64,000 nt of DNA from a bacterium (GCA_043821115.1 JBDRDD010000007.1:6276-70275); one strand, 5' to 3'. Positions 3,001 to 25,968 are shown, counted from the first letter of the stretch. Numbers and translations: made by a program. Notes: generated by a model not told the origin, from the sequence alone.

Positions 3001-4524
3001 GACCAGCAGCAGAAGAAAGCAAGGTCTGATTCGTTTGCCGGCAGCGGAGATTATGATATACCCACAAATATCTTCATATTTCCCAAGCGATTCAAAACTG
3101 GTTACACGCGCACCAATTCTTACACTAATTATGGTGTGTTTGCAACCGGTAATGAGAACTCTCTTGAGACTATAGATGACTGGAATGGTGAGCTCAACTT
3201 CAAACAGGCATGGGGCAAGCAAATGCAATTGCACAGTTTCGCAATAACACCTTCTTACAGGCTGAAAAGGGCAGAGCTTATGAAGCAGATGCAGGCTCCC
3301 GAACGCAAGCTAAGAAACCCCCGTTATACGGAACAGAGTGCAGGTGTGCAGACTGATTTCAAGTTCTTCGGGTGGTTCAAGCCGCAGGCTAATGCTAATG
3401 TAACTTCCCGTTCCGATTACAATACAGAGGCAAGCTCATACACCGTTACCTCTAAGAACATAAGAAGGGACAGTATTATAGATACTAAAATTCCCTTCGC
3501 CGCTCGCGATATTATATCGCAGTCCAGGTTTTTAAGGACCCTGGAGATAAAGCCGTCATATAAACTTGAGAGAAAAGACCAGTACGAATTTGTACGCAGT
3601 GATTTTTACATCCTTGACAAACTGTGGGTTGATGATAAGTTAAAGGTAGACGAAGATCCAAAAACCACGTATGCAAAGGATGACTTCAGGACTGAACTTC
3701 GATGGCAACCGCTGGAATTTCTTGAGCTTAAAAAGGGATGGAAACCTATAGGTACGGTTGATACAAGGATCCAATACAATACAATTGAGGAACACAGGAC
3801 AACAACAGGAACACCTTCCGATACATTTACAACTATCTGGCCTGATTTGGAGTTTACCTTCCATAACATTGAATATTTCCCGTTATTTTACAGTTTTATG
3901 CAAAATGCCAGGTTTACTGTATGGTATTCACTAAAGGAAATAGACAGAAAGAAAATATCTCTTAACGAAACCCAGAACTGGAGATTCAAGTGGAACTTCA
4001 AGATATTCAATAAGTATACGTGGATTATGGAATATCAGGACACCCTCTCTACGGACAAGAACGCGGACGGCGTGTATCAGAAGAATAATATAGTTCAGAA
4101 GGCAGGGACTCAGGTGAATTTTAATATCAGCAAGAATGTTCGCTGTAACCTGCGATACGATGAGAATCTAAGCAAGCAAAAAGGGCAGAGCCTTAGTTTT
4201 GCAAGAAGAAAATCACCGAGTATAACAGTAGTAAGCGATCTTAGATTTCCTGCGGGTTTGCGTATTCCGCTTCTTATGAGAAAGCCCATGTATTTGCGCA
4301 ATGCCCTTGAGATTTCAACTGCCCTGGCCGTGGATATGGAAGAGAGTAATGTGGCTAAAAACAACAAGAATACATACAAAGCCGATATAAGTGCGGATTA
4401 TGATGTTAGTAATAATTTCGTATTTACACTGGGAACAAGCTACTCCAAAGTAAATTATACACAGCTTCCTCAAAATAATTACTCAACTTTTAATTTGCTT
4501 TTTAAGCTCTTAATTAAATTCTAG
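1..4524 (+). CDS. Giant surface/outer-membrane protein, 5'-partial (N-terminus upstream of window); Asp-rich thrombospondin-type-3-like Ca-binding repeats; Tyr/Trp-rich C-terminal region ending in Phe (beta-barrel-like); possibly SprA-like
   Basis: ORF track 97..4524 (1475 aa) but frame is open from base 1 (RDISVVYKGDPEE...) and the in-window Met has no signal peptide; repeats DTEDANKNDELDSDEDNGLD / DTEDLDRDGNLDSEGF; terminal residue F. Confidence 0.8.
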   Translation, partial: RDISVVYKGDPEEVVQEAAFGDIDLVLPTTEFVAYNKKLFGAKLDAKYKRLRLLAIGSRTQGISDSKEFKGRTTFQKKDIYDISYVKRKYYKLYFDSAHLPILNATEKIYIDDKDNSNNLDTTLRTVYDYANTVNYTGDFDTLDRGEDYTIDYTKGIITFNSPVGSNYVVAVAYEYSGGDVGYSNNIRMVKNEDETLVNRSLKNYYNLGATKILEEGFIVKIQDLSKDEATEIILYENNTDKSQFTSYQIEELDFDTGFLRFVSETPFPAEVYTTNPTQSKIIYVEYKHSVNTYRLGRIDILRGSEEIRVNGNKLERDVDYLIDYDIGMVTFLKEDIISEDSDVRIDFEYLPFGGQLQQTLVGARGELSLHRNWFVGSTIMYNWSAPPTYVPDVKGAPESVLVMEADSRYKFEKEGVPFKGEISGEIARSQRDVNTYGKAMIDNMEGSKTEDMMPTNKQLWLPASNPGQSADKRQDITLDNQDVDSEDINSNVLDKDAKQQVLTLGYSLPDTDSWASVVYPISKTGVDYSQKQYLELKMYGDGSNTEFNIDLGRISEDIDSDGVMDTEDANKNDELDSDEDNGLDLSLDQFGNNTSLPSNYGEDDGRLDTEDLDRDGNLDSEGFISRYSSLTDTAGTSYTSVSWTGWKTFQIPLDITAANKSSWENIKHVRLWMTRGTGTSASGSLKIAAINIVGNNWEDGEVTGSGSLDVRSINNEDDSGYVTLPDSFYNDIYNEDLDEDDVKEQALSLKYTLSNGEEGHTKKTFTSAQDYRDYKQLRFYVYGTNSLGGTVYFRIGTETAYFEFEKVVDWTGWKQINLNLIDKNSDFLADTIIYDDQELTKAGTPSLGNITELRFGVRNNTGAQITDGEIWVNDIHLADPQSRVGEAKRIHMSTSYKDWFSVDADFKTQDRNFETIGKKSAGQDSTRYSVDPRITYFKFLPIIAHWDKQKTITPTTTGTDLSSSAEGTVTSENKNIGADFRYKKWPHLNTKVSQSLQDIDQQQKKARSDSFAGSGDYDIPTNIFIFPKRFKTGYTRTNSYTNYGVFATGNENSLETIDDWNGELNFKQAWGKQMQLHSFAITPSYRLKRAELMKQMQAPERKLRNPRYTEQSAGVQTDFKFFGWFKPQANANVTSRSDYNTEASSYTVTSKNIRRDSIIDTKIPFAARDIISQSRFLRTLEIKPSYKLERKDQYEFVRSDFYILDKLWVDDKLKVDEDPKTTYAKDDFRTELRWQPLEFLELKKGWKPIGTVDTRIQYNTIEEHRTTTGTPSDTFTTIWPDLEFTFHNIEYFPLFYSFMQNARFTVWYSLKEIDRKKISLNETQNWRFKWNFKIFNKYTWIMEYQDTLSTDKNADGVYQKNNIVQKAGTQVNFNISKNVRCNLRYDENLSKQKGQSLSFARRKSPSITVVSDLRFPAGLRIPLLMRKPMYLRNALEISTALAVDMEESNVAKNNKNTYKADISADYDVSNNFVFTLGTSYSKVNYTQLPQNNYSTFNLLFKLLIKF

Positions 4525-6932: not shown

Positions 6933-8765
6933 ATGAAAAACAAAAAACTTATATCGTTAACAGTAATTTTAACTCTGATGGTGGTTTTATATCCTTTAGC
7001 AGGATACGCTGAGAAAGAAGTAGGTGGTGAACCTGGTTCTTTTTTGACCATGGCACAGGGTGCGAGGTCACTGGCGCTCGGAGGCGCTTTTGTAGGGCTT
7101 GCGGATGACGCTTCGGCCCTTTGGGCGAATCCAGCGGGATTACATGAGTTAAATAAGATGGAATTTGTATCGCTTTTTGCGCCGTTATGGGAGGATACTA
7201 ATTACAGTCTTCTGGGATACGCGCATCCCACGGTTAGCTGGGGAACGTTTGCAGCGGGAGTGACGCAGATATCAAGCAAGAATTTCAAGAGGAGACTCAC
7301 CGTAAGTGACAGCCCGACTAATTTTAATGTTGTGGAGCAGGCATATTTTCTCTCCTACGGCCAAGGGTTTCTTGAGAAGTTCTCAGCCGGGGCGAGTTTT
7401 AAGATGGTTAATCAGAAGATAGATACCTACAGTGATTCAAAGTTGGGCGTGGATATAGGCGCCATGTACAGGTCTTTTGATAAGAAGTTTTCGCTTGGTT
7501 TCAACGTGCAGAACGTAATGCCGCCGAAGATGAAATTAAGAGATGAATATGACACATATCCTATCATCGCCAAGATGGGCGGTGCGTATACTTTCAAACC
7601 TGAAAAATCCGAAAGTAACCGAAAGCTTACTTTATGCTTTGAGATGGATTATTCCGCTTTCACGGAATACTTAAAGACAGCAGCTGGTGTCGAGTACTGG
7701 ACAGGGCCTTTTCTGGCTCTGCGGCTAGGTAAGGACACCTATGACGATCTTACATTCGGTTTCGGCTTTGCGTACAATGACCTTCAGTTAGATTACGCGC
7801 TTGCCAATCATGAGCTTGGTCTCACCCATCGCTTTTCACTTACCTACCGGTTCGGGTACATAGGAGAATCAAAGTACAGTGAGAAGGCTATTAGCAAGAA
7901 GATCAAGGATCACGATATGAAGGGACAGATGCATTACGAAGCAGCTAAGTATTCCCAGGCTCTGGGTGAATGGGAAAAAGCTCTCATTTGGAACCCTGCT
8001 GATAAAGAAATACAGGCAAAGCTCGAAAGAGCCAATAACCAGCTCGAAGCCATAGTCAATAAGAAGCTTCTTGAGGATCGTATTGACAAGGCATATATTT
8101 CCTACGAAGAAGGAAATATGGTTGAATCAATGGAACACTGGCAGGAGGTCTCAAAGTTGGACCCGGCTAACGACAGGGCCAAGGAATATATTGAGAAAAT
8201 AAACAATGTGCTCGTAAAAGAGGAAAAGGAGATTTACCAGGAGCGTCAGAAAGAAAAAGAAATATTGATTATAGCAGGCCATATTGAGAAAGGTCAGGGG
8301 TTCTACAGGAAGAAGCAGTATGACAAGGCTATAAAAGAGTGGAAGAAAGTAATTGCCATACGTCCGGATCACCTGCAGGCTTCAAGCAAGATACGTCAGG
8401 CAGAGGATAAGATAAAGGATTCTATAAAATCACATCTTGATAATGGTATAGATTTCTATAATTCCGGGAAGACAGCCGATGCTATCCGTGAGTTAAAGCT
8501 TGTGCTGTCCTATGAAAAGGATAATGAGCAGGCTAAAGATTATCTGTCTAAGGCAGAGATTGTGGGAAAAGAGATTCGCAAAAAGGTAGACCCGCATCAA
8601 GTCAACCGGCTTTATTACCAGGCTGCTGATATGTATCTTAAGGGAAGCTACCAGGAATCTGTAGGGGTTCTGGACGAACTTTTAATTATGGATCCTGTCA
8701 ATGAAAACGCACTGAAGCTCATGGATAAAGTGCAGAGTGTTATGGAGGTGCTTGGAAAACGATGA
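6933..8765 (+). CDS. FadL/PorV-like outer-membrane beta-barrel fused to a C-terminal TPR-like helical domain
   Basis: Signal peptide; hatch-like motif GARSLALGGAFVGLADDASALWANPAGL; barrel-terminal strand THRFSLTYRF at about aa 300, then about 300 aa of helical repeats; starts 2 nt after argS stop. Confidence 0.8.
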   Translation: MKNKKLISLTVILTLMVVLYPLAGYAEKEVGGEPGSFLTMAQGARSLALGGAFVGLADDASALWANPAGLHELNKMEFVSLFAPLWEDTNYSLLGYAHPTVSWGTFAAGVTQISSKNFKRRLTVSDSPTNFNVVEQAYFLSYGQGFLEKFSAGASFKMVNQKIDTYSDSKLGVDIGAMYRSFDKKFSLGFNVQNVMPPKMKLRDEYDTYPIIAKMGGAYTFKPEKSESNRKLTLCFEMDYSAFTEYLKTAAGVEYWTGPFLALRLGKDTYDDLTFGFGFAYNDLQLDYALANHELGLTHRFSLTYRFGYIGESKYSEKAISKKIKDHDMKGQMHYEAAKYSQALGEWEKALIWNPADKEIQAKLERANNQLEAIVNKKLLEDRIDKAYISYEEGNMVESMEHWQEVSKLDPANDRAKEYIEKINNVLVKEEKEIYQERQKEKEILIIAGHIEKGQGFYRKKQYDKAIKEWKKVIAIRPDHLQASSKIRQAEDKIKDSIKSHLDNGIDFYNSGKTADAIRELKLVLSYEKDNEQAKDYLSKAEIVGKEIRKKVDPHQVNRLYYQAADMYLKGSYQESVGVLDELLIMDPVNENALKLMDKVQSVMEVLGKR

Positions 8766-10096: not shown

Positions 10097-10115
10097 CACA
10101 CAGGTATAATACAGG

Positions 10116-11501
10116 ATGGCTACTCCAAAAGCGAAAATAAAACTCATAAGCAGGATCGCGTTGAAATTCAGTGCGATTGTCTGCTTTATTATCCTACTCA
10201 TAATGCTTCTTATGGCAAGCCTTATACTGCAGCAGACAAGGCAGTCATTGATAAAAGAGATGGAGATAAAAACAGAATTTTTTGCCCGCGATGTCAGGGA
10301 ATCCATGTTCCCCCAGCCGGATCCATTTCAGTTATTCTTCAGTGTTAACGAGATGATAAAAGACAAGGCTACGCTCTATGCCATCGTGCTTGACACAAAG
10401 GGAGAGATAGTTTCACATCACGACAGGGAGAGAATAGGCTCGCTTGATAAGAGTTCTGTGTCTCTTAGGGCGATGCAGAGCTCAGAGGTTCTTACCCAAC
10501 CCTACAAAAAAGGCTCGGAAGAATTATATGACATCTCTGTTCCTATCATGGTCGGAAAGGATCACAGGATAGGAACCGCACGCATAGGATTTTCCAAATC
10601 TTCCATAAATGCCGCGCTTGCAGAGAAAAGGAATAAGATTATAAGTATCACCATTGTCATGCTGGCGATTGGTGTGTTAGGGACAAGCATTGTGGTAACA
10701 CTAATGGTCAACCCGATAAATACGCTTGTTAAGGCCGCGCGCGGGATAGGTGAGGGAAAGCTGGACCAGGAGATAAATATAAAAGGTAAAGATGAGATAG
10801 GACAGCTTGCCAGGGCGTTTAGTGAAATGGTAAAAGGTCTTAAGGAAAGGGATTTTATACGAAATACCTTCGGGAAATACGTGACAAAGCAGGTTGCCGA
10901 AGCCATCCTTGAGGGGCAGCTCGAACTTGGAGGGGAGCGAAAAAAGGTTACGATACTCATGTCTGACATAAGGGGTTTTACAAAAATGAGCGAGAAACTT
11001 CCTCCCGAGGAAGTCGTGGACTTTCTAAACCTGTACTTTACGAAGATGGTGGATGTAATCAATAAGTACGAGGGAACTCTCGACAAATTCATAGGCGATG
11101 CGCTTCTTGCGGTGTTCGGCGCGCCTATAGCCCACATGGATGACGCAAGAAGAGCAGTATTTGCGGGAATAGAAATGAGCGAAGAGCTTGCGAAATTCAA
11201 TGCCGAGAGGCATAAGAACAATCAGGACCCTCTGGAGATAGGCATTGCCATTCATACAGGGGATGTTGTCGCTGGGAACATAGGTTCTGAGACCCGCATG
11301 GAGTATACAGTTATAGGAAATACCGTTAACCTTGCATCACGGGTCGAGAAGCTTAATAAGAAACTCGGTACCATGATGCTGATAACAGATGATACCTATC
11401 AAGAGGTAAAAAATGTCGTTGAAGTGAAGGATATAGAGCAGGTGAGTATAAGGGGTATAGAGAAACCCGTTAAGATATACGAGGTTGTGGGAAGAAAATA
11501 A
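10116..11501 (+). CDS. Membrane-bound class III adenylate/guanylate cyclase with HAMP domain
   Basis: N-terminal TM segments, HAMP-like linker (EIGQLARAFSEMVKGLKE), cyclase domain VTILMSDIRGFT...FIGDALLAVFGAP...IGIAIHTGDVVAGNIG. Confidence 0.9.
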   Translation: MATPKAKIKLISRIALKFSAIVCFIILLIMLLMASLILQQTRQSLIKEMEIKTEFFARDVRESMFPQPDPFQLFFSVNEMIKDKATLYAIVLDTKGEIVSHHDRERIGSLDKSSVSLRAMQSSEVLTQPYKKGSEELYDISVPIMVGKDHRIGTARIGFSKSSINAALAEKRNKIISITIVMLAIGVLGTSIVVTLMVNPINTLVKAARGIGEGKLDQEINIKGKDEIGQLARAFSEMVKGLKERDFIRNTFGKYVTKQVAEAILEGQLELGGERKKVTILMSDIRGFTKMSEKLPPEEVVDFLNLYFTKMVDVINKYEGTLDKFIGDALLAVFGAPIAHMDDARRAVFAGIEMSEELAKFNAERHKNNQDPLEIGIAIHTGDVVAGNIGSETRMEYTVIGNTVNLASRVEKLNKKLGTMMLITDDTYQEVKNVVEVKDIEQVSIRGIEKPVKIYEVVGRK

Positions 11502-19151: not shown

Positions 19152-20576
19152 TTGAAAGAACAGGCGAATATTCTTATAGTCGAACATGAAGCTTCGGTTT
19201 GTGATACCCTAAAAGGCATCCTCGCACAGGATGGCTATAATGTTGAATCGGCCACACTTGGCAAAGATGCGCTGCTACATCTGAAGGATTCTGTGTTTAA
19301 CATGGTGGTCTTGGATGTAAGTCTGCCTGATATAAACAGTCTTGACCTGCTCAGGGCTCTTAGACGGTCAAGTCCTTTTGTCTTTGTTCTTGCCACCGCG
19401 GGTGGCGGTGATTTCGAAAGGGTATTGGCTGCGGTAGAGGGAGGGGCATACAGCTATATAATGAAGCCCTGCAATAGCGACGAATTCAAGGTCATGGTAA
19501 AAAAGGGTATCGAAAGCCAGAAACAGATTCTGGTTAATCTGAAGTTACTTGAGAAGCTCAAAGAAAAGAAGGAGAAGACAGAGGATATACTATCTATATG
19601 CGAGGCGATGAGTTCGACCAATGATATGGGAACGCTTGTAAATCTTATTGTTAGCGAAATCTCGCGTTTTCTAGGTGCGAAAAAAGCATCTCTTATGCTG
19701 GTTGAGGAAGGGTTGCAGTATCTGGTTATAAAAGCTGCAAAAGGTATAGATGAGAAAATTGTAAAAGCCACCAAGATACGTATTGGTGATGGCATAGCGG
19801 GATGGATAGCACAGGAAGGTAAGCCATGGGTCGTCACGGATATTGAGCAGGACTCAAGGACCAGACAGCGTAACAAGTCCTCATATGAGACCAAATCATT
19901 CATGAGTATACCCATTAAGCTAGGTAGCAAGGTGAGGGGTGTTGTGAATATTTCCGACAGGGTAACTGAAGGGGCCTCCAGTTTCACGGAGGAGGACCTG
20001 CGCCTGAGTATGATAATAATGCGCCAGGCGGCAAGCGCTTTGCAGAACTGTTACCTTAACGAGAAGATAGCAAAGATTGACATAAAAGATAACATTACCG
20101 ATGCGTTCAACCAGAAATATCTTAATCAGAGACTGATAGAAGAGATAAGCAGGGTACACCGTTACAAGGGATGTCTTTCAGTCGTAATGCTCGATATAGA
20201 TTATTTCAAGCAGTACAATGACAGAGCCGGTTACATGATGGGCAATACGATAATAAAGGAGTTTTCTCAGATAATTAAGGAGAACATACGCGGTGTGGAC
20301 ACGATGGCGCGCTACGAAGGCGGATGTTTCGTGCTTATCCTGCCTCAAACCGATGTCAAAAGTGCATACGCGGTAGCGGAAAAGATAAGAAAGGTAATAA
20401 GCGAGTATCCTTTCCCGGAATCGCAGAAGCAGCCTGCGGGACGGGTGACCATAAGCGGGGGAATCGCGGAACTAGTAAAAGGCATGGACAAAGAAGAGCT
20501 TATTAGCAGGGCGTATCAGGCACTGTTGCAGGCTAAGGGGTCCGGTCAGAAAAATACTATTTCAATCCACACTTAA
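19152..20576 (+). CDS. Response regulator with REC-GAF-GGDEF architecture; GGDEF active-site motif degenerate (EGGCF), I-site RxxD retained
   Basis: REC (VLDVSLPD); GAF; GGDEF-fold with IRGVDTMARYEGGCFVLILPQTD instead of GG(D/E)EF. Confidence 0.9.
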   Translation: MKEQANILIVEHEASVCDTLKGILAQDGYNVESATLGKDALLHLKDSVFNMVVLDVSLPDINSLDLLRALRRSSPFVFVLATAGGGDFERVLAAVEGGAYSYIMKPCNSDEFKVMVKKGIESQKQILVNLKLLEKLKEKKEKTEDILSICEAMSSTNDMGTLVNLIVSEISRFLGAKKASLMLVEEGLQYLVIKAAKGIDEKIVKATKIRIGDGIAGWIAQEGKPWVVTDIEQDSRTRQRNKSSYETKSFMSIPIKLGSKVRGVVNISDRVTEGASSFTEEDLRLSMIIMRQAASALQNCYLNEKIAKIDIKDNITDAFNQKYLNQRLIEEISRVHRYKGCLSVVMLDIDYFKQYNDRAGYMMGNTIIKEFSQIIKENIRGVDTMARYEGGCFVLILPQTDVKSAYAVAEKIRKVISEYPFPESQKQPAGRVTISGGIAELVKGMDKEELISRAYQALLQAKGSGQKNTISIHT

Positions 20577-21808: not shown

Positions 21809-21843
21809 TTGACTTTATTTTATTTTTATGGTATACTTATAAT
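21809..21843 (+). promoter_or_regulatory. Sigma70-type promoter for the kinase gene cluster
   Basis: TTGACT - 17 nt - TATACT followed directly by TATAAT; 14-mer GGTATACTTATAAT identical to the one at 34646..34659. Confidence 0.5.
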
Positions 21844-21910: not shown

Positions 21911-23353
21911 ATGCTTTTAAAAAGAAAGTTGCTTTTAGCATTTTTAGGCATATCACTTTTTATTGTTCTTGTGACAAGTATAGTTCTCATCGATAGTGGC
22001 AAAACATTGAACAAGGCAATAGAGCTTACAAGCCAGTGGAACACGGCCCAGTTAAAAATCATAGAGGCTCAGGAAGCAGAGAAAAATTACGTCCTTGAAC
22101 GCAAAGGGCTTATTCCGCACCTGGGTGCCGGTTATGAAAAGGAATTCTTCACGTCTGTCGATAGTGCGAAGGATGCGTCAAGGCGTGACAAAGAAATAGT
22201 AATTGTAATAGAAATTTACTCGGATTATTTTACAGAGGTACTGGAGAAGGACACTCTTGATGAGAAAACAATAGAAACGCTGCGTGATAAGGGCAATGAG
22301 GCGAGAAAGATTGTCTCGGAAAAAGTTGTAAGCGTTCAGAATAAAGCTGGTGACACCCAGAAGAGGATTTCATCAATACTTCTCGTCGCCTTTTTTGTGG
22401 GTGCGGGAGTCTCTGTAGGTGGTGCTGTATTCTTTTCCAGGCTTATAGCTGAACCGCTTGTGAAACTGACACGAAGCGCGCGCAAGATAGCCGAAGGTGA
22501 TATATCTCAGGAAGTTCCTGTAATAAGCCAGGATGAAATAGGGGAGATAGCTGCTGTCGTAAACAAGCTCTCCCATGAACTGTTTAAGGCGAATAAAACC
22601 CTTGCCGACGGGAAGAAAGATCTCGAGCTACAGCTTGCCAGGCATACAAAGGAACTCCAGGATAAGCAATCTGATACGATAGAGTCAGAGAGAAAGGGTG
22701 CGGTCGAGCAGCTGGTCAACGCGATAGATACCGGGCTTACCATGAAACTCAGTAACCTCCGGGCGCTTGTATACCAGATGAGAGACAAAATTCCAAAAGA
22801 AGAGAAGGCCCTTTCGTTAGATATGACAAATGTTGTAAGAAGTGTTAACCAGGCTACCAGGGTAAGCAATAATATCCTAGCGTATTTTAAGCACCCTGTC
22901 CTGAATATAGAGTTTTCAGATGTAAACCGCGCCATCCAGGAAACCTTGATGATGAAGGAAAAAGAAGGTATATTCGATGACATCAAGGTAGTGCGCAGGC
23001 TGCAGGGGGGTATTCCCCAGATTCCTCTTGACGCGAGGTACATGAAAATTGCCCTTGATAACCTCTTTACCAATGCATACCAGGCAATGAGCGGGGCGGG
23101 GGAACTTATAGTTATGACAAGCGCCGTGCCCGGTGAAATAGAGATAAAGATCACGGATTCGGGAGTCGGCGTAAGCGATGACAACAGGGGTAAGATATTT
23201 ACACCGTTTTTTACCACCAGGGAAGACAACCTCGGGCTGGGTTTGGTAGTAGTTAGGGAGATAATAAAGCAGCATCGAGGCAACATAGCGATGCAGAGTA
23301 CGGTTGGAAAAGGAACCACTTTCATAATAAAGCTGCCGGTGGTTCCGAAATAA
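21911..23353 (+). CDS. Histidine-kinase-like sensor (TM, HAMP, HATPase_c) lacking a recognisable phospho-acceptor His in the H-box position
   Basis: Complete N, G1, F, G2 boxes (LDNLFTNAYQAM, DSGVGV, IFTPFFTT, GLGLVVV); H-box position reads VNAIDTGLTMKLSNL; start set to second ATG (21911), which has an RBS. Confidence 0.85.
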   Translation: MLLKRKLLLAFLGISLFIVLVTSIVLIDSGKTLNKAIELTSQWNTAQLKIIEAQEAEKNYVLERKGLIPHLGAGYEKEFFTSVDSAKDASRRDKEIVIVIEIYSDYFTEVLEKDTLDEKTIETLRDKGNEARKIVSEKVVSVQNKAGDTQKRISSILLVAFFVGAGVSVGGAVFFSRLIAEPLVKLTRSARKIAEGDISQEVPVISQDEIGEIAAVVNKLSHELFKANKTLADGKKDLELQLARHTKELQDKQSDTIESERKGAVEQLVNAIDTGLTMKLSNLRALVYQMRDKIPKEEKALSLDMTNVVRSVNQATRVSNNILAYFKHPVLNIEFSDVNRAIQETLMMKEKEGIFDDIKVVRRLQGGIPQIPLDARYMKIALDNLFTNAYQAMSGAGELIVMTSAVPGEIEIKITDSGVGVSDDNRGKIFTPFFTTREDNLGLGLVVVREIIKQHRGNIAMQSTVGKGTTFIIKLPVVPK

Positions 23354-23372
23354 ACCAAGAAGGATTCAGCCA

Positions 23373-24398
23373 ATGAAGATCAATATGAAGAAAAGAAGCA
23401 AACTGATAAATAAGCTTATAGGGTTATTCGTACTTGTCACTATCCCTATCCTTGCGATAAGCGTTAAACTGCTTATTGCCTCCAATAAATTTGACTTGGG
23501 ATCTGTGATATACATAGCGTACAGCGTCATTATAGCTGTAATAATCGCGGTGTTCTTTATTAACCACAGCATCATACGTCCGCTGGAGCAGCTCCATGAA
23601 GGATCTGAAAAGATAAAGGACGGTGATTTCGAGCACAGGCTTGTCGTGAGGTCAAATGACGAGATAGGGGACCTGACCAACTCGTTTAACGAGATGACGG
23701 ATGACATGAGGCGAAAGATAGTAGAGCTGGGTGAGTACAACACCACCCTCAAGGATAAACTTGAGAGGGCGAGCCTCGAGCTGAAGAAAAGCCAGGAGAA
23801 ACTCCTTCATCTTGAGAAAATCTCCACAATGAAGCAGATCGTTACATCCGTGACGCATGATCTGAAAGATCCTTTAACCGGTATAAAGACCGCCGCTTAT
23901 TACCTCGGTGAGAAGATCAGCAAGGATAACCCGGCGCTTACGAATATAATACGCGACATTGAAACAGAGATAGAGTACGCCGACAATATAGTGACCAACA
24001 TACTCTCTCTGGCGCGTCCTACAAATACGGGCCTTAAGCCCACAAATATAAATGAGGTAGTTGAGAAAGCCATTGCTCTTATAACCTCGCAGGCCATATT
24101 GCAGAAGATAAAGATTGTGAAGGTCCTTCATCCGTCTCTTCCCGCAATGCTTGCCGATGATACGCAGCTTAAACAGGTATTTATTAACTTGCTTCTTAAC
24201 GTCTTCCAGAGTATGCCACAGGGAGGGGAGCTTACCATAAGTACAGCAGAGAATGCAGGCAGGCTGGAGGTTAAGATAGTTGACTCAGGCAACAATGACA
24301 GGGTGTTCGAACCTATATTCAGCTCCAGGGACAATGACAAAAACAGAGACCTGGTCATTATGACCGAGGTAGCAAGAAACAGGGAATATGACGAATAA
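23373..24398 (+). CDS. Sensor histidine kinase with intact H-box but degenerate/truncated ATP-binding domain
   Basis: HAMP; H-box SVTHDLKDPLTGI; N-box NLLLNV and DSGNN present, but G2 box replaced (DKNRDLVIM) and protein ends about 30 aa early relative to its paralog. Confidence 0.85.
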   Translation: MKINMKKRSKLINKLIGLFVLVTIPILAISVKLLIASNKFDLGSVIYIAYSVIIAVIIAVFFINHSIIRPLEQLHEGSEKIKDGDFEHRLVVRSNDEIGDLTNSFNEMTDDMRRKIVELGEYNTTLKDKLERASLELKKSQEKLLHLEKISTMKQIVTSVTHDLKDPLTGIKTAAYYLGEKISKDNPALTNIIRDIETEIEYADNIVTNILSLARPTNTGLKPTNINEVVEKAIALITSQAILQKIKIVKVLHPSLPAMLADDTQLKQVFINLLLNVFQSMPQGGELTISTAENAGRLEVKIVDSGNNDRVFEPIFSSRDNDKNRDLVIMTEVARNREYDE

Positions 24399-25878
24399 CT
24401 TTACATTGCGAGACTTGGAACAAACAAAACGTTCTCAGGAGATGAGCGTTATGACTTCGGGTCCGATAAGTATATTAATCATTGATGATGAGCCCATCAT
24501 CAGAGATACCATGGCTTGTATCTTTACTGACGAAGGCTACCAGGTGGTGGTTGCTTCTACAGGTACGGAAGCAATAGCGCTTGGGAAAACCTCGTTTTTC
24601 AACGTGGCTATCATAGATTTAAAATTGCCGGACATGAACGGTCTTGAGGTCTTAGGCGCTATCAGGCAGTCAAATCCCCTGATATGCGCGCTTCTTATCA
24701 CCTCACATCCGACTACTAATACCCTTATAAGCGCGGTAAAAGCGGAAGCTTACGATTATATAAGAAAGCCTTTTGACATAAATCACATAAAGCTTGTCGT
24801 CAAGCGCGGCGTGGAACGCCAGCGCCTCTTCATAGAGAATGAAAAACTGCTTAAAAGTCTGACCGGGGAGAAGAGGAAGCTCGAGGCTATACTGCAGGTC
24901 AGTGAAATGATGAGCTCCATACTAAACCTTGATAAGCTGGTGAACTTTCTTGTTGTAAAATCAATGGACGTTCTTGAAGCCAAGCGCGGTTCCATAATGC
25001 TCCTTGATAGTAATGAGAGGCATTTGTTCATAAAAAGCGCCAAGGGCTTAAGCGAGCATATAGTAAAAGACACCAAGGTTAAGCTGGGAGAGAGGATCTC
25101 GGGATGGGTTGCCCAGGAGGGGAAACCGCTGCTCGTGGCAGATGTTGAAAAGGACCTGCGTCTTCAGAGGAAAAACAGACCCCAGTATATCACAAAATCA
25201 TTTTTGAGCGTTCCTCTTAAGCTTGAGGATAAGGTAATAGGAGTGATAAACCTTACGGATAAGCTCAAGAGTCCCAACGGTGTATTCACTGACGAGGACC
25301 TTAAATTCCTATCCATCATAGTCCAGCAGGGTGCGGTTGCCATAGAGAACGCGAAGTTATACAAGAAGGTGAGCTGGCTTGCGATTACTGACGCGTTAAC
25401 GGAGCTATTCAACCAGCGCTATTTCCAGGTGCGTCTGGCTGAGGAAATTAACCGTGCAAGGCGTTACGTTCGTCCGCTGTCGCTGATCATGCTTGATATA
25501 GATTATTTTAAGAACTACAATGATGTAAACGGCCATCTTAAGGGGAATATCCTGCTTCGCGGTATAGCGCAGATACTTAAGAACAGTGCCCGAGGCGTTG
25601 ATATACTCAGCCGTTACGGTGGTGAGGAATTTGTGGTGATACTGCCGGAAACAGATCTTGCTGACGCCCAGGCTGTAGCTGAGAAAATACGAAAGGCAGT
25701 GGAGGATACAGTGTTCGAGGGAGAGGAAAAGCAGCCCTTGGGAAAAATTACCATAAGCGGCGGCGTGGCTGTGTACCGTCAGAATATAACGGAAGACCAG
25801 TTTATAGGAAGGGCGGATGAAGCGCTCTACAGGGCTAAGGAACTGGGAAGAAATAAAATTTGTGTTTATGAGCAATAA
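24388..25878 (+). CDS. Response regulator diguanylate cyclase (REC-GAF-GGDEF, canonical GGEEF)
   Basis: REC (IIDLKLPDMNG); GAF; I-site RGVD and A-site SRYGGEEFVVILPETD; true start may be an internal Met near 24448. Confidence 0.9.
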   Translation: MTNNFTLRDLEQTKRSQEMSVMTSGPISILIIDDEPIIRDTMACIFTDEGYQVVVASTGTEAIALGKTSFFNVAIIDLKLPDMNGLEVLGAIRQSNPLICALLITSHPTTNTLISAVKAEAYDYIRKPFDINHIKLVVKRGVERQRLFIENEKLLKSLTGEKRKLEAILQVSEMMSSILNLDKLVNFLVVKSMDVLEAKRGSIMLLDSNERHLFIKSAKGLSEHIVKDTKVKLGERISGWVAQEGKPLLVADVEKDLRLQRKNRPQYITKSFLSVPLKLEDKVIGVINLTDKLKSPNGVFTDEDLKFLSIIVQQGAVAIENAKLYKKVSWLAITDALTELFNQRYFQVRLAEEINRARRYVRPLSLIMLDIDYFKNYNDVNGHLKGNILLRGIAQILKNSARGVDILSRYGGEEFVVILPETDLADAQAVAEKIRKAVEDTVFEGEEKQPLGKITISGGVAVYRQNITEDQFIGRADEALYRAKELGRNKICVYEQ

Positions 25879-25917
25879 AACTAATTGACTATAACACTAT
25901 AGATTGGTATTATATAT

Positions 25918-25943
25918 GATAAGTAAAGACAGCTTTACTTATC
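25918..25943 (+). promoter_or_regulatory. AT-rich perfect hairpin in the hisG upstream region (terminator or attenuator-like)
   Basis: gataagtaaag-acag-ctttacttatc (11-bp arms) followed by atatttttattt. Confidence 0.4.
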
Positions 25944-25968
25944 ATATTTTTATTTGAGGTGAGAAGAT

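Follow-up and report, generated by a model that had tools for sequence, protein, structure and literature searches.

Two adjacent histidine kinase homologs with complementary defects, encoded upstream of a GGDEF response regulator: a candidate split HisKA-type kinase

Gene organization of the A-B-RR2 locus

The window analysed here is a 64,000-nucleotide stretch of DNA from a bacterium (GCA_043821115.1 JBDRDD010000007.1:6276-70275), and its main subject is a pair of neighbouring genes, A and B, followed by the response regulator gene RR2, which we discuss as a candidate split histidine kinase with its regulator. An initial annotation, made from the DNA alone, had described A and B as adjacent paralogous kinases, one lacking the phospho-acceptor His and the other the ATP lid, and both open reading frames (ORFs) are present where it had placed them. 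Gene A (21911..23353, + strand) was assigned by ORF, Pfam and alignments as a His-less, ATP-binding-competent sensor kinase homolog of 480 aa, named ‘ATP-binding protein’ by NCBI (MFH1783655.1); its ATG at 21911 is preceded by a good ribosome-binding site, AAAGGGGGA. Gene B (23373..24398, + strand) begins 19 nt downstream of A, in the same direction and with its own ribosome-binding site, AAGAAGGA. It encodes 341 aa, named ‘HAMP domain-containing protein’ by NCBI (MFH1783656.1), that would represent a membrane-anchored, His-bearing subunit with a degenerate and truncated catalytic ATP-binding (CA) domain.

RR2 (24451..25878, + strand) encodes a REC-GAF-GGDEF response regulator of 475 aa counted from its likely start, in an ORF that opens at 24388. 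A regulator of this architecture had been announced behind the pair and is present, while the start at 24388, which overlaps the end of B, gives way to a likelier one. Indeed, the ATG at 24451 is preceded, at 8 nt, by AGGAG and yields 475 aa, compared to 475-476 aa in the orthologs, so that RR2 most likely starts at 24451 and not at 24388. The ORF opening at 24388 starts with MTNNFTL, which vaguely resembles the kinase C-terminal “TFTL.LP”. A frameshift relic was nevertheless ruled out by the ortholog spacers between B and RR2 (19-66 nt) and by the length of the ortholog RR2 proteins, and the 21-codon extension (24388..24450) is probably not translated.

On Pfam RR2 matches Response_reg (E 2.5e-26) and GGDEF (E 3.1e-44), and its alignment displays the REC Asp within a complete receiver pocket (DDE...D...T...K), GGEEF as the active site and RGVD as the I-site. 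By these motifs RR2 qualifies as a response-regulator diguanylate cyclase of PleD-like logic, and would thus make cyclic di-GMP (c-di-GMP).

The AT-rich gap upstream of A contains a promoter-like site (TTGACT-17-TATACT, TG extended; 21809..21837, + strand), which is a consensus match only, and a terminator-like hairpin with a 15-bp stem and a T run (25914..25947, + strand) lies directly after RR2. No terminator-like site was found between the promoter-like site and 25914. On balance, we favour the view that A, B and RR2 form a three-gene operon encoding a split kinase and its response regulator.

Protein A has a complete ATP-binding domain and no phospho-acceptor His

In the Pfam search protein A shows a HAMP domain (residues 174-224, 22430..22582, + strand; E 6.8e-12) and a nearly full HATPase_c domain (profile 3-109 of 111, E 1.3e-20), and no HisKA match. 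Its N-terminal part holds an extracytoplasmic domain (residues 28-152, 21992..22366, + strand) flanked by transmembrane (TM) helices at residues 5-27 and 153-176. This domain is modelled as an all-helical bundle by AlphaFold2 (AF2), with a predicted local distance difference test score (pLDDT) of ~ 90, matched no Pfam family, and is among the least conserved parts of A (35-52% identity between orthologs). A is the sole gene of the operon with an outside domain.

Functional residues were assigned by aligning A and B with ZraS (PDB 9jfj), with each other and with ~ 70 homologs. Where a kinase would present its dimerization and histidine phosphotransfer (DHp) domain, A has a DHp-like helical hairpin without a phospho-acceptor (residues 256-330, 22676..22900, + strand; from alignments). 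Thr274 (codon 22730..22732, in ...VNAIDTGLTMK...) occupies the phospho-His column, which is filled by His in nearly all of the homologs; the neighbouring Asp273 was considered as the His counterpart and ruled out by the column-by-column alignment, and no His is found anywhere in the H-box helix of A. The acidic residue at H+1, the Asn/Thr at +4 and the Pro at +5 are missing as well. The CA domain of A (residues 331-480, 22901..23350, + strand) has, on the other side, intact N (N384/N388), G1 (D416-G418-G420), F (F430/P432/F433/F434) and G2 (G442-L-G444-L) boxes, and the AF2 model of A, which is confident over the whole chain (pLDDT 88), shows the catalytic domain to be complete. Hence both halves of the earlier description of A hold: the four boxes are complete, as the alignment and the HATPase_c profile agree, and the phospho-acceptor is absent, the alignment having brought to light no correctly placed His.

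Protein B has a phospho-acceptor His and a degraded ATP-binding domain

Protein B matches HAMP (residues 62-113, 23556..23711, + strand; E 1.4e-14) and HisKA (E 8.8e-9) on Pfam, while its HATPase_c match covers profile positions 2-47 of 111 only and stays, with 21.5 bits, below the 26.4-bit cut-off. B is anchored by a TM hairpin (residues 14-36 and 43-64 by sequence, 23412..23564, + strand; AF2 helices 5-36 and 42-82) whose helices are linked by an outside loop of ~ 6 residues only, and therefore it has no sensor domain. In its DHp/HisKA domain (residues 146-222, 23808..24038, + strand) the H-box reads SVTHDLKDP, with His162 (23856..23858) and the adjacent Asp163 retained. The residue at His+4 is Asp166 (HDLKDP; residues 165-166 at 23865..23870) and not Asn or Thr. 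This substitution is found in 4/4 B orthologs, compared to Asn/Thr in 66/66 outgroup kinases, and the acidic residue adjoining His is likewise kept in 4/4 of the orthologs.

The CA remnant of B (residues 223-341, 24039..24395, + strand) retains the N-box residues Asn272/Asn276 and, from the G1 box, Asp304-x-Gly306. The second G1 Gly is replaced by Asn, a deletion of about 6-7 residues follows G1, and DKNRDL stands where the G2 box would be GxGLGL. Furthermore, B ends 21 residues short of the end of A and the final two β strands are missing; in the AlphaFold model, which likewise lacks these strands, the catalytic fold has a pLDDT of ~ 85 over its first two-thirds and ~ 50 in the tail. In the aligned outgroup kinases the His, the Gly at the Gly306 position of G1 and the Asn/Thr at +4 are each present in 66/66 sequences, and the G2 glycines are nearly invariant (at least 90%). 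Since these motifs are near-invariant in outgroups and both defects, of A and of B, occur in every ortholog, the defects are not due to chance.

The initial annotation of B has to be refined. Its N-box is intact as described, and the alignment offers no intact G2 box or ATP lid. However, the H-box is canonical for the His and its adjacent acid and not at His+4, and the damage extends beyond the G2 box and lid to the G1 box.

Conservation of the pair among related bacteria

Homologs were searched with single sequences and profiles among 5.8 billion proteins and 1.84 billion cluster representatives. Both families are sharply bounded: the B family is small, with P0001-P0005 and their cluster members, after which the score drops from 455 to 166 bits, and the A family shows one 50% cluster at 879 bits, the next being at 257 bits. 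The A-B-RR2 order was found on six further contigs from five lineages of related uncultured bacteria, one genome being labelled Elusimicrobiota. Five contigs (L001, L081, L082, L083 and a JGI contig) were read directly; on the sixth, a Logan contig of 3260 bp, the presence of the genes together was deduced solely from cluster data for P0122 and P0272. The genes lie in a syntenic housekeeping block. L001, L081 and the JGI contig carry the order aminotransferase-ThiL-RR1-TsaE-TsaB-A-B-RR2-HisG-GltX, and shorter stretches that match it are present on L083 (TsaB-A-B-RR2) and L082 (A-B-RR2-HisG). The spacing between A and B ranges from -11 to 33 nt on all contigs but one.

Orthologous loci, to which the initial annotation had pointed for a check, conserve both the complementary defects and the order of A, B and regulator. 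All B orthologs (338-347 aa) carry the same truncation. In A none of the orthologs (0/6) has a His at the acceptor column, which reads T/A/G/L/A/S, while the residues of the N, G1 and G2 boxes do not vary (6/6) and the F-box is kept in 5/6, the exception being a Pro to Ser change in the L081/L002 copy.

Synonymous differences between orthologs are saturated (pS ~ 0.75 or more in most pairs), whereas non-synonymous differences (pN) range from 0.05 to 0.45 in every domain of A and B. With pS saturated dN/dS is not estimable, and the comparison of pN with pS and the amino-acid identity per domain were used instead. Both proteins are under purifying selection in every domain. Overall identity between orthologs is 70-77% for B and 42-52% for A. 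The B DHp domain, at 81-94%, is the most conserved segment of either protein, followed in B by the HAMP domain (75-85%), the N part of the catalytic remnant (69-81%) and the tail (48-65%). In A the catalytic domain reaches 59-69%, and the DHp-like hairpin, at 33-52%, is among the fastest-evolving segments, only the S-helix being lower, although its hydrophobic positions persist among orthologs. RR2 is 78-86% identical.

Relation of A and B to each other and to other kinases

A and B share 26% identity (E 2e-35) and have the same best outgroup matches. They are not mutual best matches by score, as each scores higher against Cache-type kinases. The term paralogous, used initially, is thus apt in the sense of homologs from the same subfamily and goes too far where it would imply a demonstrated tandem duplication. 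Two proteins, P0331 and P0370, align with the whole of A but have a normal His. A set of ~ 630-aa Cache-HAMP kinases without a precomputed HisKA match (P0129-P0132, P0137, P0142, P0149 and P0212) was considered as a source of further His-less kinases and rejected, since their alignment shows a normal SHELRN H-box.

The best PDB sequence matches to the B remnant are ZraS, NtrB and RetS, with neither ChpT nor Spo0B among them, and the match of B to PF10090 (E 0.059, 13.6 bits) lies below the 22.9-bit cut-off. Given these results, together with its TM helices and HAMP domain, B was rejected as a phosphotransferase of the ChpT/Spo0B type. A fold search with the B model returned ordinary kinases only, BceS and RetS among them, and nothing discriminating. 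No CheA domains (HPt P1 or the P3-P4-P5 core) were found in A or B; both have the HAMP and HisKA-type DHp/HATPase_c organization.

A and B as a bipartite kinase

By their sequence motifs, catalytic and acceptor functions lie on separate polypeptides. We therefore propose, with a probability of roughly 0.55, that A and B constitute one bipartite (split) histidine kinase of the HisKA type, and that each probably depends on the other to work, the resulting two-protein kinase driving a regulator that makes c-di-GMP. A would be the sensing and catalytic subunit, combining the outside helical domain, the TM helices, the HAMP domain, a hairpin that cannot be phosphorylated and a competent ATP-binding domain. 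B would be the acceptor and donor subunit, with its membrane hairpin, HAMP domain, intact DHp domain and lid-less catalytic remnant. The two would associate in the membrane, most simply as a heterodimer sharing one four-helix bundle, and a signal sensed outside by A would be relayed through the TM, HAMP and DHp helices that the two proteins share. The ATP-binding domain of A would then phosphorylate His162 of B across the subunit interface, and phosphorylated B would pass the phosphoryl group to the receiver of RR2, whose GGEEF cyclase would make c-di-GMP. Such an A:B heterodimer would have a live half-site, formed by the CA domain of A and the His of B, and a dead one, formed by the CA remnant of B and Thr274 of A; the elements of the dead half-site are exactly those that have degenerated.

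The distribution of conserved residues is consistent with this scheme. As the ATP-binding boxes of A are invariant while its His column is free to vary, A would still need to bind and use ATP and would have no acceptor of its own; the variability of the residue at the old His site further argues against a replacement acceptor at that position. In HisKA kinases the acidic residue adjoining His is needed specifically for phosphorylation from ATP, and the Asn/Thr at His+4 specifically for phosphatase activity, within the motif H-E/D-x-x-N/T (Willett and Kirby, PMC3510030). B keeps the kinase-specific acid and drops the phosphatase residue, which is the opposite of what would be expected of a phosphatase-only protein or a passive relay, and because Asp replaces the required Asn/Thr, B is probably a weak phosphatase. 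The conservation of the B DHp domain is comparable to that of RR2, as expected of a regulator-docking surface, while the equivalent surface of A is variable. Moreover, B has no sensor and yet its HAMP domain is strongly conserved, which suggests that the state of B is set by a membrane partner. Finally, the complementary loss would be incompatible with cis autophosphorylation in an A:B dimer, so that the pattern itself predicts a trans geometry.

Several observations weigh against a bipartite kinase. The spacing from HAMP to the H-site is 66 residues in both A and B, which would allow an in-register shared coiled coil and, together with the conserved adjacency of the genes, speaks indirectly for a physical complex; however, 66 is also the commonest value of the subfamily, hence permissive rather than specific, and for this reason it was rejected as evidence for heterodimerisation. 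The DHp-like hairpin of A varies (33-52% identity) while that of B is nearly invariant, and a tightly shared bundle might be expected to constrain both. B keeps its N-box Asn residues and the G1 Asp, and may therefore have residual nucleotide binding. Some histidine kinases autophosphorylate in cis (PMC5956149), and if the bundle geometry of this subfamily is of the cis kind the A:B heterodimer would be dead. On L001 (GCA_017973895.1) a stretch of 507 nt that looks non-coding (7874..8380) lies between A and B, and no internal direct or inverted repeats were found in it. Furthermore, the window encodes a complete histidine kinase (58737..62018) that could donate phosphate to RR2 or B, and the ~ six known lineages are too few for coevolution analysis. 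While the domain anatomy, the two complementary defects, their conservation, the selection on them and their operon context are shown by the data, the interaction of A with B, the flow of phosphoryl groups from A through B to RR2, the geometry of the heterodimer and the loss of phosphatase activity are what we infer, and this applies in particular to the contact and to the A-to-B transfer, on which a bipartite kinase depends.

A more specific version, in which A and B would form an obligate heterodimeric class I kinase that arose by reciprocal degeneration of full-length membrane paralogs, with one half-site permanently dead, is put forward tentatively, as we judge it possible and on the doubtful side.

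Alternative explanations

A and B could alternatively act without any phosphoryl transfer between them. A would then be a regulatory pseudokinase comparable to DivL or RetS, with a nucleotide pocket of conformational or regulatory use only, and contacts in the membrane or by the HAMP or DHp domains would inform B of the state of its sensor. B would be a stand-alone DHp protein that is fed with phosphate by another kinase or receiver, or that does no more than bind RR2. Kinase homologs acting by contact are established, as for DivL (PMC4211667) and for RetS with GacS (PMC8498467, PMC5992135), and RetS appears both among the fold matches of B and near the top of the sequence matches for its CA remnant. 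The faint resemblance of B to the histidine-phosphotransferase C-terminal family (PF10090, E 0.059) points the same way, and a relay would not want for sources, as the window also encodes further complete kinases as well as several stand-alone receivers and RR1, a REC-GAF paralog of the regulator, lies nearby. However, a purely conformational pocket hardly accounts for the N, G1 and G2 residues of A, which are invariant, and for an F-box kept in 5/6, in a protein that is only 42-52% identical overall; this conservation points to selection for ATP chemistry. On the side of B, the kinase-specific acid is held and the phosphatase-specific residue missing (PMC3510030), the CA remnant is a derived one of the ZraS/NtrB type and no relative of ChpT or Spo0B, and a strongly conserved HAMP domain would be needless in a passive phosphotransfer protein. 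We regard this explanation as unlikely, while taking it as the most serious of the alternatives.

It is a good deal less probable that A is a GHKL-type kinase of a non-His substrate, such as a Ser, Thr or other residue on B, on RR2 or elsewhere, with B acting independently on RR2. Comparators are the anti-sigma kinases SpoIIAB and RsbW, the mitochondrial kinases PDK and BCK, and the His-less plant ethylene and phytochrome receptors, and the known turn of His-less kinase homologs into Ser/Thr kinases speaks for such an activity, as does the fully conserved ATP-binding domain of a protein with no His acceptor of its own. Plant cases of His-less kinase homologs are mentioned in PMC5712524 and PMC7402358. 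On the other hand, no Ser or Thr is conserved at or beside the former His site (T/A/G/L/A/S), no gene of the locus looks like one for an anti-sigma antagonist or for any other known substrate of GHKL Ser-kinases, and the complementary loss in the adjoining B, with its His and kinase-specific acid kept, would be left unexplained. As for decay, which the initial annotation had raised in the form of decaying paralogs and which is taken here to cover also pseudogenes or an assembly artefact, with recent and functionless defects, it is true that each protein fails a defining feature of the kinase family and that NCBI names neither a histidine kinase. Decay is refuted, however, by six or more independent assemblies that agree in lengths, frames and defects, and by pS at saturation while pN is 0.05-0.45 and the proteins remain 70-77% (B) and 42-52% (A) identical. 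In addition, the 19-66 nt spacers between B and RR2 in the orthologs leave no room for a frameshifted C-terminal remnant. We thus consider this explanation very improbable.

Comparison with known systems

Split kinases are established among CheA proteins, with CheA3/CheA4 of Rhodobacter sphaeroides and Hik36/Hik43 of Synechocystis, while HisKA split kinases have only been predicted, from the 3.66% of HisKA proteins without HATPase_c in SMART (PMC3591291, PMC7656254). Like CheA3/CheA4, A and B would have catalysis and the phospho-His on separate polypeptides, neither of which is expected to autophosphorylate alone, and would feed one regulator (PMC3591291, PMC7656254). CheA3/CheA4 are however class II proteins with the His on a separable HPt (P1) domain and have lost whole domains, whereas A and B are membrane kinases of the class I HisKA kind that keep the full TM-HAMP-DHp-CA layout and have lost motifs, not domains. 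CheA3 is also a phosphatase, and B is without the HisKA phosphatase residue.

A HisKA-class arrangement of two adjacent kinase genes and one regulator, like that of A, B and RR2, is found in Mycobacterium tuberculosis with Rv0600c (HK1), Rv0601c (HK2) and TcrA (PMC3544749, PMC9321153). Compared with HK1/HK2, taken here by their description only, A and B are complete-length paralogs with their own anchors and HAMP domains, each carrying a degenerate form of the other's function. In the work attributed to Shrivastava et al. from 2006 to 2009, HK1 reportedly bears the ATP-binding domain and phosphorylates the His-bearing HK2, which passes the phosphate to TcrA, and the pair is said to be the result of a gene fission that left the DHp part and the CA part on separate genes.

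The classical proof of trans-autophosphorylation is the complementation of His-less by ATP-site-defective NtrB mutants (Ninfa et al. 1993, as cited in PMC5956149). A resembles a natural H-box mutant and B a natural G1/G2-box mutant, as used in such tests on NtrB, EnvZ, CheA and MtrB, where phosphorylation is restored in mixed dimers of the two mutants if the kinase acts in trans (PMC5956149). The laboratory cases consist of engineered alleles of one gene in mixed homodimers, whereas A and B are separate genes, 26% identical and under selection. MtrB acts in cis and complementation fails there (PMC5956149), and as it fails in cis kinases the analogy is valid only if A and B work in trans.

DivL of Caulobacter and other histidine pseudokinases, in which the His is replaced, are conserved and functional proteins like A (PMC4211667, PMC5361649). 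DivL signals in reverse, through contact with phosphorylated DivK and CckA, and has no adjoining partner that is His-bearing and lid-less; A has every ATP-binding motif intact and lies directly upstream of its complementary partner B. The pairing of two different sensor kinases through their DHp domains, as proposed for A and B, is exemplified by RetS-GacS of Pseudomonas aeruginosa (PMC8498467, PMC5992135). RetS acts as an inhibitor of GacS, itself fully functional, and both are hybrid kinases encoded at unlinked loci; in the A/B pair neither protein looks functional alone, activation is the predicted effect and the genes lie side by side. With its two TM helices and almost no outside loop, B further resembles the intramembrane-sensing kinases BceS and LiaS, a type whose input depends on a membrane partner, although the catalytic domains of BceS and LiaS are intact. 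ChpT and Spo0B present, as does B, a His-bearing bundle with a CA-like domain that is not expected to bind ATP, but are soluble, lack HAMP and receive their phosphate from receiver domains.

In the open-access literature we found no report of two natural HisKA-class proteins that have lost motifs reciprocally, and nothing usable on trans-phosphorylation by AtoS. What sets A and B apart from these systems is that both have the full-length TM-HAMP-DHp-CA organization, each with a degenerate copy of the function of the other, fixed under selection.

Implications of a naturally split kinase

Histidine kinases are treated as homodimers, and alternate firing as well as cis or trans phosphorylation have been probed with engineered mixed dimers. 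If A and B do form a split kinase, such a pair, fixed in nature, would offer a clean model for asymmetric kinase signalling and heterodimer specificity, and also for the transfer of a signal from a sensing to a non-sensing subunit, since one subunit would only catalyse and the other only accept. In the more specific version, that of an obligate heterodimer, the sensor-bearing catalytic subunit would drive a sensor-less, phosphatase-deficient acceptor through shared TM, HAMP and DHp helices, as the kinase counterpart, with hard-wired asymmetry, of the heterodimeric ABC transporters in which one nucleotide site is degenerate. A natural pair of this kind would also mean that HisKA split kinases, as predicted in PMC3591291, can arise by a duplication-style complementary loss and not by gene fission. 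With the names “ATP-binding protein” and “HAMP domain-containing protein” such pairs are invisible to censuses of two-component systems. As the pair is confined to a small clade of uncultured bacteria and its mechanism is a proposed one, the immediate impact is modest.

Neighbouring signalling genes

Two genes upstream of A lies RR1 (19152..20576, + strand), a paralog of RR2 with 43% identity. Its cyclase motif is degenerate, YEGGCF (Y-E/Q-G-G-C-F across three genomes) compared to GGEEF, and the acidic pocket of its receiver is atypical, E-H-E (E-H/N-E across three genomes) compared to D-D-E, while the RGVD I-site is kept; all three features are conserved in the three genomes, the counterparts lying at 3142..4572 on L001 and 4622..6049 on L081. 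From these motifs RR1 may bind c-di-GMP as a receptor instead of synthesizing it, and is possibly an additional partner of the kinase pair. RR1 and RR2 make up a second pair of paralogs at the locus with one live and one degenerate member.

A second signalling cluster was seen on Pfam at 54826..62846, on the + strand of the same window. Encoded there are a lone receiver (54826..55236), a dCache-HAMP-coiled-coil protein without output domain (56105..57529), a 1094-aa dCache-HAMP-PAS-PAS-HisKA-HATPase_c kinase with a C-terminal GGDEF-like region (58737..62018), and two further lone receivers (62061..62453 and 62457..62846). Another gene (10110..11498, + strand) encodes a protein of the sCache-HAMP-adenylate/guanylate cyclase type, that is, a membrane sensor with a nucleotide-cyclase output.

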